In this document: positions 3,407-57,384 of the stretch, in pieces | Position numbering within the stretch: position 1 is the first letter of the stretch | Layout of the letters: each line of letters starts with the position of its first letter | Notes under the pieces: model-generated | Seen by the model: only the letters and a program-made list of their open reading frames with translations | Told to the model about the DNA's origin: nothing | The model's database searches: none | Program-made: the position numbers and the translations under genes | Source of the DNA: Patescibacteria group bacterium | GTDB taxonomy: Bacteria; Patescibacteriota; Patescibacteriia; JAHJFT01 | NCBI GenBank assembly: GCA_028710985.1 | Contig: JAQTTB010000001.1 | Span: 19,280-83,279 of the forward strand | Reading direction: 5' to 3' | Length of the DNA stretch: 64,000 nt

Positions 3407-3991
3407 CTATATCGAAATCCGACAAAATCGACGAATTTCCACTTTCTCCCCAAGCGTCACGATCCGGTCATTGATCAAGTCCGCAATCGTCTTATCTTCG
3501 TCCTTTATAAATACCTGGTTCATAAGGCAAACCTCGCTGTAATACTTGGCAAGCTTGCCCTCCATAATTTTATCCATGATTGCTTCGGGTTTTCCTTCGG
3601 CCACGAGTTCTTCGCGGTACATCTCCTTCTGTTTTTCCAGAATCTCCGCGGGAATATTTTCGGGCTTGAGATACAGCGGCTCGGTTGCCGCAACCTGCAT
3701 GGCAATGTCATGCGCCAGTTCTTTGAATATTTCGTTACGGGCAACGAAATCGGTTTCGCAAAGAATCTCAATCATGGCTCCGACCTTGCCGTTTGCATGT
3801 GTATAAGCGTGCACTATTCCTTCCTTCGTCACCCTTTCGGCGCTCTTTTTCGCCGCCTTGATCTGGCCTTTTTTCTTTAAAATTTTCACCGCTTCGTCGA
3901 TATCGCCAGCGGCTTCATCCAGCGCCTTCTTGCAATCAAGCATGCCCGCGCCAGTAATTGTACGCAATTTTACCACTTCTTGTGTTTCCAT
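3407..3991 (-). CDS. tsf: translation elongation factor Ts (short form)
   Basis: 194-aa ORF with the N-terminal UBA-like motif LRTITGAGMLDCKKALDEAAGDIDEAVKILKKKG. It directly follows rpsB, the conserved rpsB-tsf order. Confidence 0.9.
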   Translation of the reverse strand: METQEVVKLRTITGAGMLDCKKALDEAAGDIDEAVKILKKKGQIKAAKKSAERVTKEGIVHAYTHANGKVGAMIEILCETDFVARNEIFKELAHDIAMQVAATEPLYLKPENIPAEILEKQKEMYREELVAEGKPEAIMDKIMEGKLAKYYSEVCLMNQVFIKDEDKTIADLINDRIVTLGEKVEIRRFCRISI

Positions 3992-9420: not shown

Positions 9421-9450
9421 AAATTAATCAGCTTCGATGCCTTGTTTGGT

Positions 9451-9593
9451 TTAGTCAAAAGTTAAAAGTCAAAAGTCCAAAGTCAAGTCTAAAATTTTTT
9501 AGTCCAATCTCTCCAGCTGAATGTATCTATAACTTTTTGACTTTTAACTCAACTTTTAACTTTAGACTTTAGACTTTTAACTACAAAACAAAC
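9451..9593. repeat. intergenic inverted block of 7-nt periodic words (AAAGTYN x5 versus CTTTWRA x5-6)
   Basis: The left block, 9451-9494, carries GTTAAAAGTCAAAA (9461-9474) and AAGTCTAAA (9485-9493). The right block carries their complements: TTTTGACTTTTAAC (9535-9548, 14/14), GACTTTTAAC again (9572-9581) and TTTAGACTT twice (9561-9569, 9568-9576). It fills the 173-nt gap between two co-directional GT genes. Confidence 0.75.
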
Positions 9594-10712
9594 CTACCAA
9601 AATATAATTAGTCGTGCAATTAAAAAATAAAGATTAAACAACGGATTAGCGATTTTAAGCGCCCAATTATTAATTTCCTGATACTCAATCTTCCCTGTGA
9701 AATGACGAAGCACTTCTTTATCCCCGATACTTCTCGCGCGCGCGATTCTCGCGTGCTTGACGAAGAGATACGGCCAGTGCCACGGCGCGATCATCCAAAG
9801 ATATGCCTTAAGCTTCTCGCGCCACCAGCCGGACTTGATGGAAAAAATAAACTGCCCGAGCTCCATCGCGAGAAAGGCCGGCAGAAACACGAGCTGGGTC
9901 AGAAATTTATAATCGCAAAAATATAAAATAAAACGATTTCGCTCCATCCAGTAATATTTTGAAATACTCCGGCTGAATTCATATTCGTGATACACAACCG
10001 ACCGCGGCGCGAGCACGTTCACGAACCCGCCAAGCCGGAGCCGCCAGCCCAGATCCAGGTCTTCGTGATACGCAAAAAGTTTTTCATCAAAAAGCCCGGC
10101 ATCGCGCAAGGCGCCGATCTTGTATAAAACCCCGGCTCCGGAGCCGTAAGCAATTTCCGGAAGCCCGATAAAATCGCGTTCGCTCCGCGCCGCGCGCGAA
10201 CCGCCGCAAAATCCGAATCCCAGATAATGAATCATGTTGCCCGACGAATTAATGAGTCCGCGCTCGGGCCAGAGCGCGAGCAGAGACTGCACCGAACCGA
10301 TTTTCTGATTTGATTCCGCCGCATCGACGGCATGGCGCAAAAAATCCGGCTCAACCCGCGTATCGTAATTTATTAAATAAACATAATCAAAACCCTGCAC
10401 CTGCCTGCCGGTAGGCAGGGCCATTGCATACTCAATCGCGCGGTTGTTTCCGCCGGCAAAGCCGAGATTCGTGTTCATGGGCATAAAGTGAATCTTCGGC
10501 AGCCCCTGGGGCGGCGACTGCATTATCTCCAGAATGCGCTCGCGCGACCCGTCGGTTGACGCATTGTCAACAATAACAAGCTCAACCGCCTCCCGCGGAT
10601 AATCCAAGAGCGCGAGCGATTCAATCCAGGCATCTAAAAAACGCCGCGCCTTCCAGAGCACGGCGATAATTGCCACTCGTTTTACATCCTGATTATTCAT
10701 GCTTTTTTGCAT
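9594..10712 (-). CDS. glycosyltransferase family 2 (rhamnosyltransferase-like)
   Basis: VAIIAVLWKARRFLDAWIESL...VIVDNASTDGS, then DYVYLINYDTRV and YHEDLDLGWRLRLGG. The ORF-track start at 10838 is an extension overlapping the upstream gene. ATG at 10712 (MQKSMNN) or 10700 is more likely. Confidence 0.8.
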   Translation of the reverse strand: MQKSMNNQDVKRVAIIAVLWKARRFLDAWIESLALLDYPREAVELVIVDNASTDGSRERILEIMQSPPQGLPKIHFMPMNTNLGFAGGNNRAIEYAMALPTGRQVQGFDYVYLINYDTRVEPDFLRHAVDAAESNQKIGSVQSLLALWPERGLINSSGNMIHYLGFGFCGGSRAARSERDFIGLPEIAYGSGAGVLYKIGALRDAGLFDEKLFAYHEDLDLGWRLRLGGFVNVLAPRSVVYHEYEFSRSISKYYWMERNRFILYFCDYKFLTQLVFLPAFLAMELGQFIFSIKSGWWREKLKAYLWMIAPWHWPYLFVKHARIARARSIGDKEVLRHFTGKIEYQEINNWALKIANPLFNLYFLIARLIIFW

Positions 10713-11037
10713 CTTCACTCTTCTCTCCCACCGCGATTTCGCGGGTAATTTTTGTGATATTTTTTTCGATTGACTGAATTTTAATGAATATTCTGAACGC
10801 GAGATAAAATAACAGCACGATTGAAAGATATGTCGCAAGATCCGCGCCGCGCTCGACTCCGAACCAGGCCGCCGCCACGTCGGTTTTCTTTGGGATTACC
10901 GCCGCCGCGCTGACCGCAATCCAAAACAAAAGCCAAACCGCGAGCCATCCGGCGGTAATGTCTTTTGATCGGTACTTGCGGAACGCTCTCCAGGCCGCAA
11001 TCGCCGCAAATAATATAATAACCGCTTGAATTATCAC
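10693..11037 (-). CDS. small membrane protein, DUF2304-like (usual partner of polyprenol-phosphate GT2 enzymes)
   Basis: 114-aa ORF with a GTG start in a GTGA overlap with the upstream GT2 stop. Three TM helices plus the C-terminal amphipathic IFIKIQSIEKNITKITREIA. Confidence 0.65.
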   Translation of the reverse strand: MIIQAVIILFAAIAAWRAFRKYRSKDITAGWLAVWLLFWIAVSAAAVIPKKTDVAAAWFGVERGADLATYLSIVLLFYLAFRIFIKIQSIEKNITKITREIAVGEKSEDAKKHE

Positions 11038-11705
11038 AAAAATTTATTTAATAAATAATCCCAGACTATTTTTAACGAGCCGAGCGATCTCTGTCCTTTC
11101 GCCAGGCTTTCCGGCGTGTATTTAACCGTTACCGGCACTTCGACATATCTTAATTTGTTCCTTCCGATTTCGTCAAGAATTTCCGAAGCGTGAGCCATTC
11201 TGTCCTGGGTAATTTTAATCTTCTCGGCCGCCTCACGGCTCAATGCGCGGAATCCGTTATGCGTGTCTGTGACCCTAAGCCCGGAAGTCAAACGGGTAAA
11301 AATTATACCACCCATAAGCACGAGCTGGCGCAAAGCCGGCACATTGGATTTTTTTCCCAAAAACCGCGAGCCCAGCGCCACATCCGCCCCGCCAAGAATA
11401 ATCGGCTTCACCATCTCGTCAATCTCTTCGGCCAGATGCTGGCCGTCAGCATCATAATGCACGATAATATCCGCGCCCAGGCTCCGGAGAGTGAATTCGG
11501 TACCCGTGGCAAGAGCCGCCCCCTGTCCACGGTTAATCACGTGACGCAGTACCACCGCTCCGGCCGTTCTTGCGACTTCAGCCGTCGCGTCGGTTGAACC
11601 GTCATCAACAACTACGGCGGCATCAATATGCGGCTTTATATCTTCTATGACTTTCGTGATAGAAGCCTCCTCGTTGTAAGCTGGTATTACTGCTACTATT
11701 TTCAT
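11034..11705 (-). CDS. glycosyltransferase family 2, polyprenol-phosphate sugar synthase-like (soluble DPM1/GtrB-type)
   Basis: 223-aa ORF: KIVAVIPAYNEEASITKVIEDI...VVVDDGSTDAT...HYDADGQH. Confidence 0.8.
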   Translation of the reverse strand: MKIVAVIPAYNEEASITKVIEDIKPHIDAAVVVDDGSTDATAEVARTAGAVVLRHVINRGQGAALATGTEFTLRSLGADIIVHYDADGQHLAEEIDEMVKPIILGGADVALGSRFLGKKSNVPALRQLVLMGGIIFTRLTSGLRVTDTHNGFRALSREAAEKIKITQDRMAHASEILDEIGRNKLRYVEVPVTVKYTPESLAKGQRSLGSLKIVWDYLLNKFL

Positions 11706-11731
11706 AAAACTACTTTCGCATCAATATTATC

Positions 11732-11960
11732 GTCATTCCCGCGAAGGCGGGAATCCAGAAACAGTATACCTTGCGGATTCGATTTATAAACTGTCACACA
11801 AATCACTCCAAAGCGGATTGCAGTCTTCAATGAATTTAATCTTTTAGACCCTTTCCACTTATTGGAGGATGCAAATATAGAACTGCCGATAATCGGACAT
11901 AGCATAAATAAGTAGCCCCGAGATTAATTGGTTGTGGATTCCCGCCTTCGCGGGAATGAC
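11732..11960. repeat. MITE-like unit bounded by 26-bp perfect terminal inverted repeats, each a REP-type hairpin
   Basis: GTCATTCCCGCGAAGGCGGGAATCCA (11732-11757) is the exact reverse complement of TGGATTCCCGCCTTCGCGGGAATGAC (11935-11960). The arms are 177 bp apart. Each arm is itself a palindrome (ATTCCCGC-GAAG-GCGGGAAT). It occupies the gap between two co-directional genes. Confidence 0.7.
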
Positions 11961-11964
11961 AGTT

Positions 11965-12978
11965 CTAAATCCCAACCAACCCCTTCTGCACCCTTGAAAA
12001 ATCAATCGTCTTTTGAAGGCCCTCCTCAAGCCGCACGAGCGGAATCCAGTCTAGCCTCTCTTTGGCTTTGGTGATATCCGGAAGCCCAAGTTCGGTCATG
12101 AAAAGAAGCGGGGGTTCATGTTTGATTTCCGAGGATGAATTCACCATGGCGATTATTTTCTTTGCCACGTCGGCGAGCAGGAAATCCTGGTCCGATCCGA
12201 GATTCACGGGCCCGATATCCGCCGGCGCCTGCATCAGGCGCTTCAGCCCGTCAACAATATCCGAGACAAAACACAGGCTTGTTTTAAAACTTTCATCGCC
12301 GTAAATAACCAGTTCTTTGCCGTCAAGCGCGTCGGTGATAAAATCCGGTATCATCTGGCCGTCAAAAAGTTTCATGCGCGGCCCGTAGGTGCGGAAGATA
12401 CGCGCAATTTTCGCGTCGATCCCAAAAACTTGACTATAAGTCGCGACCATTGCTTCAGCGAAGCGCTTTCCCTCATCATAACAGGCGCGAGGCGAAATGG
12501 TTGAAACCCCGCCGATTTCATCTTCCCGAAAAGAAAGATGCTCTTCTTTGCGCCCTCCATAAATTACCGAACTGGATGTAAAGAGAAATTTTGCTTTGTA
12601 CTTCACCGCGATATCCAGGGCGTGCCTTGTTCCGACCGAGTTGGAAAGCGCGGTCTGCAGCTTAAATTCATCAAATCGTTTCGCCGATGTCGGACAGGCC
12701 AGATGATAAACTTCCTGAATTCCCTGAAAACGCAATTTGAACCTCTCAAGCTCGGGAAATGATTCCAGATCAAACGGTTCGTTGGTATCCAGCCGCAGAA
12801 ATTCAAAATCCGGATTCTGCATCAACCGGTCAATGTTTGATTCCGAGCTCGTCACAAAATTATCAATACAAATAACCTTGGCTTCATCCAAAAGCGACTC
12901 GCAGAGGTGTGAACCGATAAATCCGGCCCCGCCGGTGACAAGCACATTTTTCTTCTCAAATATGGGCGAAATTGGCAT
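11965..12978 (-). CDS. NAD-dependent SDR, UDP-glucuronate decarboxylase (UXS)-like
   Basis: 337-aa ORF: VLVTGGAGFIGSHLCESLL, VYHLACPTSAKRF, YDEGKRFAEAM (YxxxK). The usual STSEVYG motif is diverged to TSSSVIYG. Confidence 0.7.
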   Translation of the reverse strand: MPISPIFEKKNVLVTGGAGFIGSHLCESLLDEAKVICIDNFVTSSESNIDRLMQNPDFEFLRLDTNEPFDLESFPELERFKLRFQGIQEVYHLACPTSAKRFDEFKLQTALSNSVGTRHALDIAVKYKAKFLFTSSSVIYGGRKEEHLSFREDEIGGVSTISPRACYDEGKRFAEAMVATYSQVFGIDAKIARIFRTYGPRMKLFDGQMIPDFITDALDGKELVIYGDESFKTSLCFVSDIVDGLKRLMQAPADIGPVNLGSDQDFLLADVAKKIIAMVNSSSEIKHEPPLLFMTELGLPDITKAKERLDWIPLVRLEEGLQKTIDFSRVQKGLVGI

Positions 12979-43028: not shown

Positions 43029-43263
43029 TAAAATCCCTCTCTGCCTCTCCCTTCCTGCCTGCCGGCAGGCAGGTTGCATACTTTTGGTTACAAAAGTATG
43101 TCCTGCTGAAAGCAAACAAGAGTGGTGCTAGAAAAGATAATTATTGCCCAGACAGGTGGCAGGCAAGAACTTAAAAATCCCAATATTAAAACAACTTGTA
43201 CGATAATATATAATAGGATTCCCCCGGTACATTGAACCTGGATTCCCGCCTTCGCGGGAATGA
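43029..43263 (+). repeat. mosaic palindromic-unit repeat, copy A
   Basis: In order: AAAATCCCTCTCTG..CTCTCCC; the 20-nt perfect palindrome CCTGCCTGCCGGCAGGCAGG (43053-43072); the hairpin CATACTTTTG-GTTA-CAAAAGTATG; a ~130-nt body; and the REP hairpin TGGATTCCCGCCTTCGCGGGAATGAC (43238-43263). 43051-43263 aligns with 56985-57198 at roughly 85-90% identity by eye. Confidence 0.85.
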
Positions 43264-43370
43264 CAAAAGTAAGGCAGGAATGACAAATGGCGCTAAGATT
43301 TTTATAGCAAGATTCCCGCCGGAGCCTGCCCTCATGCAAATGGGGGGGGTGGCTAAAAATATCGTCAACC

Positions 43371-53702: not shown

Positions 53703-53999
53703 ATGTCTTCATCCATTCGCTTATCCGTATCCGAAGCCGCCCGGCTTTTTGGCATTAGTGAAAAAACCCTGCGCCGCGCCATCATTAATAAGGAAATCAA
53801 CTATATCGTGGTTGCCGGCCGGTACAAGCTAAATTTTGAAAGCCTGGTCAAGTGGTCCCAGCAAAAAACCACGGTGCGCCGCAAATCCGAAAAATACGGC
53901 ATCGACCAATTTGTGGATAAATGGCGCCTCTCCGCCACCCTCTACTCCCCCAACCCACCCGCCACGGAACAAGAGAACAATTCAACAATACAACAATAG
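53703..53999 (+). CDS. small helix-turn-helix DNA-binding protein (excisionase/MerR-type HTH)
   Basis: 98 aa: LSVSEAARLFGISEKTLRRAIINKEINYIVVAGRYKLNFESLVKW. The C-terminal 11 codons are encoded by the SAACAA word array. Confidence 0.7.
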   Translation: MSSSIRLSVSEAARLFGISEKTLRRAIINKEINYIVVAGRYKLNFESLVKWSQQKTTVRRKSEKYGIDQFVDKWRLSATLYSPNPPATEQENNSTIQQ

Positions 54000-54074
54000 A
54001 ACGACCTATAAAAAAACAAGCGTTTTACCTATGCTTGTTTTTTTGTTGTATTGTTGAATTGTTGCGTTGTCCGC
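53967..54074. repeat. two facing 8-nt periodic word arrays around a bidirectional terminator hairpin
   Basis: 53967-54006 reads GAACAAGA GAACAATT CAACAATA CAACAATA GAACGACC. 54043-54074 reads TTGTTGTA TTGTTGAA TTGTTGCG TTGTCCGC. 53976-53996 and 54043-54063 are exact 21-nt reverse complements. The inner terminator is AAAAAAACAAGC-GTTTTACCTAT-GCTTGTTTTTTT (about 54010-54044). Confidence 0.9.
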
Positions 54075-56844: not shown

Positions 56845-56984
56845 GTGCATCTTAGTCAGAACATGGGGTTCGGGGGCGCAACTGAGCATGGCGCTAGGAA
56901 GCAGTGAATTGCCTATTTGCCGAGAGCGAACCCGCCTGCCAACGCCTGGCGTAGGCCTGGCGGGCAGGTTTGCGACCCCGAAAC

Positions 56985-57384
56985 TTCCTGCCTGCCGGCA
57001 GGCAGGTTGCATACTTTTGGTTACAAAAGTATGTCCCGCTGAAAGCGAACAAGAGTGATGCTAGAAAACAATAATCAATACCCAGACAAGCGGCAGGCTG
57101 TGGCTAGAAAATCCCAATATTAAAACAACTTGCACGAAAATATTTAATAGGATTCCCCCGGTACATTGAACCTGGATCCCCGCCTTCGCGGGGATGACGA
57201 AGAGAGCACTTTGCCACTTACCGTCATTCCCGCGAAAGCGGGAATCCAGAAACAAAGCCCCTCCAAAATCCCTCTCTGACACGTCGCTCGCGAGCGACGT
57301 GTCTCTGTCTCCCCCTTCCTGCCTGCCGGCAGGCAGGTCAGCCACCCCGAAACTTTTTGGTTACTTTTTGGTTACAAAAAGTAA
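56985..57384 (+). repeat. mosaic palindromic-unit repeat, copy B (expanded)
   Basis: 56985-57198 parallels copy A, with the same palindrome, hairpin, body and REP. It is followed by an inverted second REP (57223-57248), then the AAAATCCCTCTCTG...CTCCC unit interrupted by the palindrome ACACGTCGCTCGCGAGCGACGTGT. A second CCTGCCTGCCGGCAGGCAGG follows (57317-57336), then the hairpin TTACTTTTT-GGTTAC-AAAAAGTAA. Confidence 0.85.

Follow-up and report, generated by a model that had tools for sequence, protein, structure and literature searches.

The 229-bp element at positions 11732–11960 of the window (the whole 64-kb stretch of DNA analysed here) can be assigned with high confidence, judging from its sequence, to an inverted pair of CGTC-1/dRS3 REPs, i.e., an HH dimer enclosing a 177-nt, AT-rich, non-coding and apparently unique spacer. 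When set beside the corresponding loci of related genomes, it is a genuine lineage-specific insertion. The hairpin itself is not new, and the element belongs, as an ordinary representative, to a class of repeats already described, found here in a new host group, the Patescibacteria. Its architecture matches that of a solitary dRS3-RS-dRS3 unit of the NIME type or, equivalently, that of a REPIN with an over-long spacer. The initial annotation had described a MITE-like element with a core that could be a small RNA; the first label is only partly justified, and readings of the unit as a small RNA or as a small protein gene are unsupported.

The two ends, 11732–11757 (GTCATTCCCGCGAAGGCGGGAATCCA) and 11935–11960, are exact reverse complements of each other at 26 of 26 positions, as had been noted at the outset, and each contains the palindrome ATTCCCGC-GAAG-GCGGGAAT. 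The left REP hairpin lies on the plus strand, with its C-GTC tag beginning at 11731, and includes a stem (11735–11742), the loop GAAG (11743–11746), the second half of the stem (11747–11754) and the tail CCA (11755–11757). The right REP hairpin is inverted and has TGTC as its minus-strand tag; both tags point outward, which is the arrangement of an HH dimer. Between them lies the spacer, or core (11758–11934; 177 nt, no strand), which is AT-rich and non-coding and is the equivalent of an RS unit. The G+C content follows a wave of 61.5, 37.9 and 61.5% across REP, core and REP, compared with 49–50% in the flanking genes, and the spacing between the two dRS3 20-mers (11735–11754 and 11938–11957) is 183 nt. 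Beyond the REPs, a weaker inverted similarity reaches 45 nt at 82%. The core margins of ~23 nt (11758–11780 and 11912–11934) bear a weak resemblance to each other, as well as to the REP-adjacent sequences at 43216–43238 and 57150–57172.

Two minus-strand genes of glycan pathways border the element, an SDR gene and a GT2 gene, and the 259 nt from the stop codon of the first to the ATG of the second are occupied by it, in agreement with its earlier placement between a UXS-like gene and a GT2 gene. The upstream gene (11965–12978) encodes a UXS-like SDR epimerase/dehydratase of 337 amino acids with the Pfam domains Epimerase and GDP_Man_Dehyd, homologues of which are named UDP-glucuronate decarboxylase by JGI. 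The SDR protein is 100% identical to one encoded in a MAG of the Patescibacteria. The product of the downstream gene (11034–11705) is a family-2 glycosyltransferase (GT2) of 223 amino acids. The SDR stop codon is separated from the element by 4 nt (11961–11964, minus strand; AACT on the mRNA strand), and the element is separated from the GT2 ATG by 26 nt (11706–11731, minus strand). A Pfam scan of 49 ORFs in the window identified glycan-biosynthesis genes together with rpsB, tsf, gap and the genes of a sigma factor and a subtilase; no transposase or recombinase domain was found among these ORFs, and no IS with the 26-nt ends of the element was found in the window. Logan unitigs that carry both genes (SRR22315506, SRR22315508 and SRR22315509) end at the hairpins, which is the appearance of a repeat in an assembly graph.

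The CGTC-1 REP has been defined by a CGTC or TGTC tag (CCTC is tolerated), an 8-bp stem starting with AT, a 4-nt loop and a CCA tail (PMC3733652), and in Neisseria it corresponds to dRS3 (Di Nocera, De Gregorio & Rocco 2013, BMC Genomics 14:522; PMC3733652). Such REPs are known from five phyla, lie between unidirectional or convergent ORFs and occur mostly as HH dimers, with the tags outward and spacers usually of 20–100 bp; no transposase was found by Di Nocera et al. to be associated with CGTC REPs (PMC3733652). Each of the five hairpin copies in the window has the tag, the AT-first 8-bp stem, the 4-nt loop and the CCA tail; the copies read ATTCCCGC, loop GAAG or GAAA, GCGGGAAT and CCA, with a ATCCCCGC/GCGGGGAT change in one of them. 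Five copies in 64 kb, in intergenic positions between unidirectional or convergent genes, likewise agree with the genomic repetition and setting of the class. The earlier recognition of the ends as REP hairpins is therefore borne out, and their family can be named as CGTC-1/dRS3. A search of PLSDB with the hairpin and its flanks returned as best matches two N. gonorrhoeae chromosomes (97% over 33 nt, at least 40 places in each), followed by matches in Photobacterium, Azospirillum, Novosphingobium, Legionella and others. The sequence at one gonococcal locus, GTCATTCCCGCGCAGGCGGGAATCCAGAAA...CTGGATTTCCGCCTACGCGGGAATGAC, is the dRS3 repeat, ATTCCC-N8-GGGAAT. The two chromosomes of N. gonorrhoeae (2.17 Mb; NZ_CP119140.1 and NZ_CP119142.1) are stored as plasmids in PLSDB.

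To count copies in the window, the 20-mer ATTCCCGCGAAGGCGGGAAT was searched with up to 3 mismatches allowed and with shuffled sequences as the expectation. Five occurrences were found, starting at 11735, 11938, 43242, 57176 and 57226, against 0.02 expected. The hairpin had been reported to recur at three sites outside the element, and copies are present at all three, except that the one given as 43238–43263 was one base off and is correctly placed at 43239–43264. This copy is a singleton REP on the minus strand, with the identical 26-mer, at the end of a mosaic repeat, and an extra half-site (GGAATGAC) is found near it at 43277. The copy at 57173–57198 (minus) has 2 differences in the 20-mer, which form the compensatory pair ATCCCCGC...GCGGGGAT in the stem, while the copy at 57223–57248 (plus) has 1 difference, in the loop, which reads GAAA. 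Together these two REPs make up a tags-inward (TT) dimer with 24 nt between the 26-mers. The tag is CGTC at 11731–11734 and 57222–57225 and, as the reverse complement, CGTC at 57196–57199 and TGTC at 11958–11961 and 43262–43265. By type of junction, one REP locus is unidirectional and two are convergent.

The mosaic repeat, of ~215 nt, is present at 43051–43267 and 56984–57201, in both cases between convergent genes, and its copies are 85–96% identical. Its components are a 20-nt palindrome, another hairpin (CATACTTTTGGTTACAAAAGTATG) and a body, with a CGTC-1 REP at the end; past the TT dimer, the palindrome occurs a third time (57302–57338). Additional tag-proximal half-sites (GGGAATGAC / GTCATTCCC) lie ~12–20 nt outside full REPs, at 43277–43284 in the window and likewise in unrelated genomes and phage contigs (L138, L182, L235, L133, L150, L091 and others). 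From their sequences, these extras look like repeated binding half-sites.

Evidence for insertion comes from seven syntenic loci of related genomes, whose SDR proteins are 77–80% identical to that of the window and in which the gene order Bac_transf, GtrA, SDR, GT2, DUF2304, GT2, GT4, GT4 is kept. The SDR–GT2 gap in these loci is 3, 3, 3, 11, 37, 37 and 125 nt, versus 259 nt here, and the dRS3 hairpin (ATTCCC-N8-GGGAAT) is absent from the junction in all seven. Because empty sites exist in the relatives, the insertion is real; a search for such sites had been recommended in the initial annotation, and the identical occupation in all relatives that it named as the contrary outcome was not seen. 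The junction reads TAA-ttt-ATG in the relatives and TAG-aact-(229 nt)-gataatattgatgcgaaagtag-tttt-ATG in the window. The comparison shows ~255 nt to be new in this lineage, at a junction that measures 3–37 nt in most relatives, and the inserted DNA is ~26 nt longer than the REP-bounded unit. Since the relatives have only 'ttt' at the site of 11706–11731, most of this segment came with the insertion or later. No direct repeat flanks the element (ATTATC / element / AGTTCT), and target-site duplications, for which a check had also been proposed, are not visible around the unit; a 3-nt TAG duplication derived from the empty-site comparison would be possible at most, and is speculative and unprovable. 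One of the relatives (L248) carries a different long hairpin, of 125 nt, at the same SDR–GT2 junction.

These data bear on whether the element is a true MITE, i.e., one copy of a multi-copy, non-autonomous transposon with a family-specific core, whose 26-bp TIRs would be bound by the transposase of a cognate IS for cut-and-paste transposition. We consider this unlikely. The element does possess perfect TIRs (26/26), a length of 229 bp (below ~500 bp), filled versus empty sites and neither a transposase gene nor a conserved ORF, and multi-copy units of ~180 nt with the same ends exist in Magnetococcales, Binatia and Bacteroidia. However, a flanking target-site duplication is lacking (TTATC / element / AGTTC), no transposase was found in the window, and, when searched for in the 64-kb window and by blastn in ~2 Mb of hairpin-bearing loci, the core (11758–11934) recovered only itself; its pseudo-ORFs yielded no relatives. 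Further full-length copies of the 229-bp unit, which membership of a MITE family had led the initial annotation to expect, are equally absent from the window and from these loci. A metagenome scan with a degenerate REP plus subterminal pattern gave 2 matches; neither has a complete hairpin, and both are therefore chance matches. Moreover, the TIR is a free-standing REP that is also found in the window as a singleton and in a tags-inward dimer. The exact 26-mer was found in 115 IMG/VR stretches, in which the flanks are not conserved, and the letter-perfect 26-mer is common to CPR bacteria, Proteobacteria, Chloroflexota, Planctomycetota, Bacteroidota, phage contigs and others. Two opposed consensus REPs will always give a perfect 26-nt inverted repeat, so this perfection is silent on a recent copying of either end from its counterpart: the TIR is simply two cross-phylum consensus REPs. 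At least 120 genome stretches, spread over many phyla, have inverted hairpin pairs 164–194 nt apart, with hosts among the Alpha-, Beta- and Gammaproteobacteria, Dehalococcoidia, Binatia, Planctomycetota, Magnetococcales, Bacteroidia, Ignavibacteria, Leptospiraceae, Nitrospiraceae and Campylobacteraceae as well as one Halobacteria MAG. The multi-copy units of ~180 nt have lineage-specific cores (76–98% over ~190 nt in Magnetococcales, 94–96% in Binatia, and also in Bacteroidia), but their similarity often extends past the hairpins, or the unit sits in a mosaic array, which is NIME/BIME-like mosaic behaviour and not that of a classic MITE. It is also doubtful that the element arose stepwise, either from two independent REP insertions or from a short HH dimer that was invaded later, in which case the 229 bp would never have been a unit. 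Such an origin is consistent with the occurrence of REPs in the window singly and in other arrangements, and with the lengths of HH spacers, which are 12–55 nt in 25 of the 37 pairs of an unbiased IMG/VR sample; the 177-nt spacer of the element falls in the long tail of this distribution, at 3–10 times the typical length. Among the matches listed in the genome scan, the lengths of hairpin-bounded units are spread evenly over 214–244 nt without the peak that a family would give, and more hairpins lie inside 65 of the 123 cores. What argues against separate steps is the inverted similarity that extends past the REPs (the 45 nt at 82%), together with the lack of any one-REP or short-dimer intermediate in the seven related loci.

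The remaining readings assign a function to the inserted sequence. The region as a whole is predicted to fold with a minimum free energy of -96.2 kcal/mol (z = -6.8) on the mRNA strand and -90.4 kcal/mol (z = -7.9) on the other strand, and in this fold the two REPs pair with each other, giving the single long hairpin that is characteristic of REPINs. Such stability would be expected of a selected cis-acting RNA structure or of a small RNA gene, e.g., a processing site that uncouples expression, for which the REPs would have served as building blocks and would not be marks of mobility; the different 125-nt hairpin that L248 has acquired independently at the same junction points in this direction, as do the reports that a role at the RNA level, downstream of ORFs, is generally ascribed to REPs (PMC3733652) and that Correia elements are bound by RNase III (PMC2649163). 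Yet the strong overall fold arises because the REPs pair with each other, and the core alone folds no better than shuffled sequences (z = -1.3 and -0.3). Searches of Rfam at gathering and permissive thresholds gave nothing above noise, a tRNA search found no tRNA genes, and the promoter/terminator scan found no terminator-like site at the element and promoter-like matches at chance level (2 versus 0.9 expected). Given also that a 3-nt junction suffices for most relatives, we judge a selected RNA structure or RNA gene improbable, and the core, which lacks conserved relatives, does not bear out the earlier suggestion of a small RNA. That the unit is co-transcribed, as had been supposed, is by contrast very likely, since the neighbouring genes are co-oriented and lie 3–37 nt apart in six of the seven relatives (125 nt in the seventh). 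As for protein, a 67-aa ORF (11702–11905, minus) exists whose TGA overlaps the GT2 ATG (ATGA), so that it might restore translational coupling. It is absent from all relatives, however, its C-terminal part is the hairpin pseudo-peptide LDSRLRGND, and a search of a 5.8-billion-protein index gave no candidate, while an exhaustive phmmer search yielded 4 marginal partial matches among 1.84 billion cluster representatives; a small protein gene is accordingly very improbable, and we reject it. The earlier judgement that the core has no convincing coding capacity holds, in that its pseudo-ORFs have no protein relatives and word-index searches returned no candidates for core-encoded peptides. Translation of the hairpin gives LDSRLRGND, SFPRRRESR, VIPAKAGIH and WIPAFAGMT, which confirms the pseudo-peptides that had been predicted; the accompanying statement that they populate metagenome annotations was left unconfirmed by a word-index search, which produced no candidates. 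In other genomes, DSRLRGNDG, IPAKAGIQ and SFPRKRESR are present in ORFs running through hairpins of this kind, and a literature search gave no match for the exact hairpin sequence or the pseudo-peptides.

Taken as a whole, we consider it fairly probable that the element, a CGTC-1/dRS3 HH dimer inserted in this lineage, was mobilised in trans or imported and that it is co-transcribed and forms an RNA duplex. The unit encodes no transposase of its own and shows no target-site duplication. It would be non-autonomous, most likely a REP dimer mobilised in trans, in the manner of a REPIN, through single-stranded hairpin DNA, or it may have arrived by recombination with imported DNA that carried it. 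The sole candidate enzyme proposed for this hairpin is the Group 2 RAYT (a Y1/HUH transposase) suggested for Neisseria, where the ATTCCCGCGCAGGCGGGAATC REPINs have been tied to Group 2 RAYT (Bertels & Rainey, preprint 10.1101/2021.07.10.451892), and insertion of the RAYT type would leave no target-site duplication. In the use made of RAREFAN by these authors, the REPs of a REPIN lie <130 bp apart (Bertels & Rainey, preprint 10.1101/2021.07.10.451892); with 183 nt between its 20-mers, the element exceeds this distance. As the spacer is longer than typical and above the 130-bp cut-off, insertion of the whole unit in one step is not proven. Once in place, the unit would be transcribed within the operon mRNA, and in the RNA the REPs can pair as a perfect duplex of ~26–27 bp. 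This large structure would replace the former close coupling of the two genes and, by analogy with Correia elements, which bind RNase III and are either cleaved or protected (PMC2649163), could act as a processing or stability element of the RNase III type. No benefit to the cell need be assumed.

E. coli RayT had no tblastn match in the hairpin-bearing loci or the window, and the 64-kb window contains neither a RAYT nor an IS110-type gene. In N. gonorrhoeae (NZ_CP119140.1; L251, 1074425–1076297), a frameshifted RAYT-like ORF has a dRS3 HH dimer ~130 nt upstream. It is flanked most closely by GTAG-type REPs (GTAGGTCGGATTCTCGAATCCGAC), not by dRS3, so that this RAYT is a candidate enzyme for the dRS3 hairpin and no more; published views diverge on the REP that is served by the Neisseria RAYT, and the locus is relevant to them. 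The genes recurrently bracketed by inverted REPs in ~2 Mb of loci, in the manner of a REPtron, are ordinary housekeeping genes only, e.g., Glu/Gln-tRNA synthetases. An origin mediated by IS110/Piv, which was considered since dRS3 is the target of Nf phage, was rejected for de novo insertion, as the empty sites have no pre-existing hairpin.

The operon carries three small structured insertions that its relatives are without. The second GT2 protein has gained 7 residues, LPTGRQV, from 21 nt inserted in-frame at 10398–10418 (minus; ctgcctaccggcaggcaggtg), and precisely this stretch is missing from the relatives L240 and L241. Except for 1 mismatch, the inserted sequence copies a perfect 20-nt palindrome, CCTGCCTGCCGGCAGGCAGG, that is also found at 43054, 56987 and 57318, and it represents an RPE-like intragenic behaviour of a second palindrome family in the same operon as the 229-bp unit. 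Between the GT2 and GT4 genes, a 173-nt insert (9421–9593) stands where the relatives have 3–12 nt; its form is that of a long, imperfect hairpin with arms of ~45 nt made up of heptamer runs (AAAGTCT / AAAGTTA). Similar heptamer-armed hairpins are present in L248 at three operon junctions (1068–1192, 1871–2044 and 3480–3605), the SDR–GT2 junction included, and they may constitute an undescribed repeat class of this Patescibacteria clade. A further inverted repeat (53969–54070), with 34-nt arms that are 85% complementary and contain short AACAAT-type repeats, is intergenic and lies upstream of the sigma-factor gene. The region 16000–41000 is a low-GC block (35–40% versus 45–55% elsewhere) of glycosyltransferase, methyltransferase, asparagine-synthase and radical-SAM genes, and probably represents a glycan island that is variable or was acquired horizontally; a REP locus lies a few kb beyond each of its ends, at 11.7 kb and at 43.2 kb. 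The CGTC-1 hairpin of several phage contigs is found between purine-rich heptamer runs (GTGAATA-type) and a ribosome-binding site with ATG, and its orientation to the downstream gene is constant in those IMG/VR loci (L022, L068, L070, L102, L116 and others). Microcystis phage MaAM05 (MW495066.1, 274 kb) has 15 copies of the hairpin.

The clean comparison of filled and empty sites illustrates that a REP-bounded unit can enter a 3-nt junction in a tightly packed operon of a reduced CPR genome. NIME-like dRS3-RS-dRS3 units, formerly thought to be Neisseria-specific, are found across many phyla. For annotation, the hairpin and the peptides LDSRLRGND, VIPAKAGI, SFPRRRES and WIPAFAGMT should be masked as CGTC-1/dRS3 REPs and be neither recorded as genes nor taken for new MITEs. 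Which enzyme moves CGTC-type REPs is disputed, and small complete CPR genomes with REPs could narrow the candidates. It is a long shot that CGTC-1/dRS3 REP units are now mobile in the ultra-small genomes of Patescibacteria and that the perfect 26-mer shared among phyla reflects a horizontally spreading REPIN-like system, or a universal host factor by which this hairpin is recognised, instead of many independent lineage-specific REP families. On that view, the independent gain of long hairpins at the SDR–GT2 junction in two lineages would speak for selection on RNA structure.

Among known systems, CGTC-1 REPs (PMC3733652) share with the element the tag, stem, loop and tail, the outward-tag dimers, the position between unidirectional or convergent ORFs, shortly after a stop codon, and the lack of an adjacent transposase. 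Patescibacteria are absent from the five phyla listed, however, and most of the dimers described have spacers of 20–100 bp, compared with 177 nt in the element. The NIMEs (neisserial intergenic mosaic elements), described as Neisseria-specific (Parkhill 2000; Bentley 2007, PMC1797815), consist of dRS3 inverted repeats around RS units of 19–214 bp, and their G+C content peaks at dRS3 and dips in RS (Bentley 2007, PMC1797815). The 20-mer of the element fits ATTCCC-N8-GGGAAT, with GTC...CCAG flanks as in the gonococcus, and inverted dRS3 repeats enclose an AT-richer unit that is within this range of lengths and follows the same G+C wave. In contrast to the clustered arrays of the genus Neisseria, the element is a solitary unit in Patescibacteria; its core is single-copy in the window and ~2 Mb of loci, whereas RS cores have family members, and, unlike with the neisserial NIMEs, neither an Nf-type phage nor an IS110/Piv recombinase was seen here.

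REPIN-RAYT systems (Bertels & Rainey 2011, PMC3116915; preprint 10.1101/2021.07.10.451892) resemble the element in that two inverted REPs form one long hairpin, which is non-autonomous and has no target-site duplication, and the master sequence of the Neisseria REPIN is the same hairpin with a different loop; they differ in the distance between the REPs (<130 bp versus 183 nt). Rickettsia palindromic elements include RPE-6, which is CGTC-1 (PMC3733652), and so belong to the same hairpin superfamily as the REPs of the element, but they are inserted in-frame and the 229-bp unit is intergenic. Correia elements and other bacterial MITEs (PMC2649163; Chunjie in Geobacter) differ in their TA target duplications, their conserved multi-copy core and their TIRs, which are not free-standing REPs. 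What they have in common with the element is a small, TIR-bounded insert between the genes of an operon, along with co-transcription and the possibility of a duplex of the RNase III type, both of which are probable for the unit described here.
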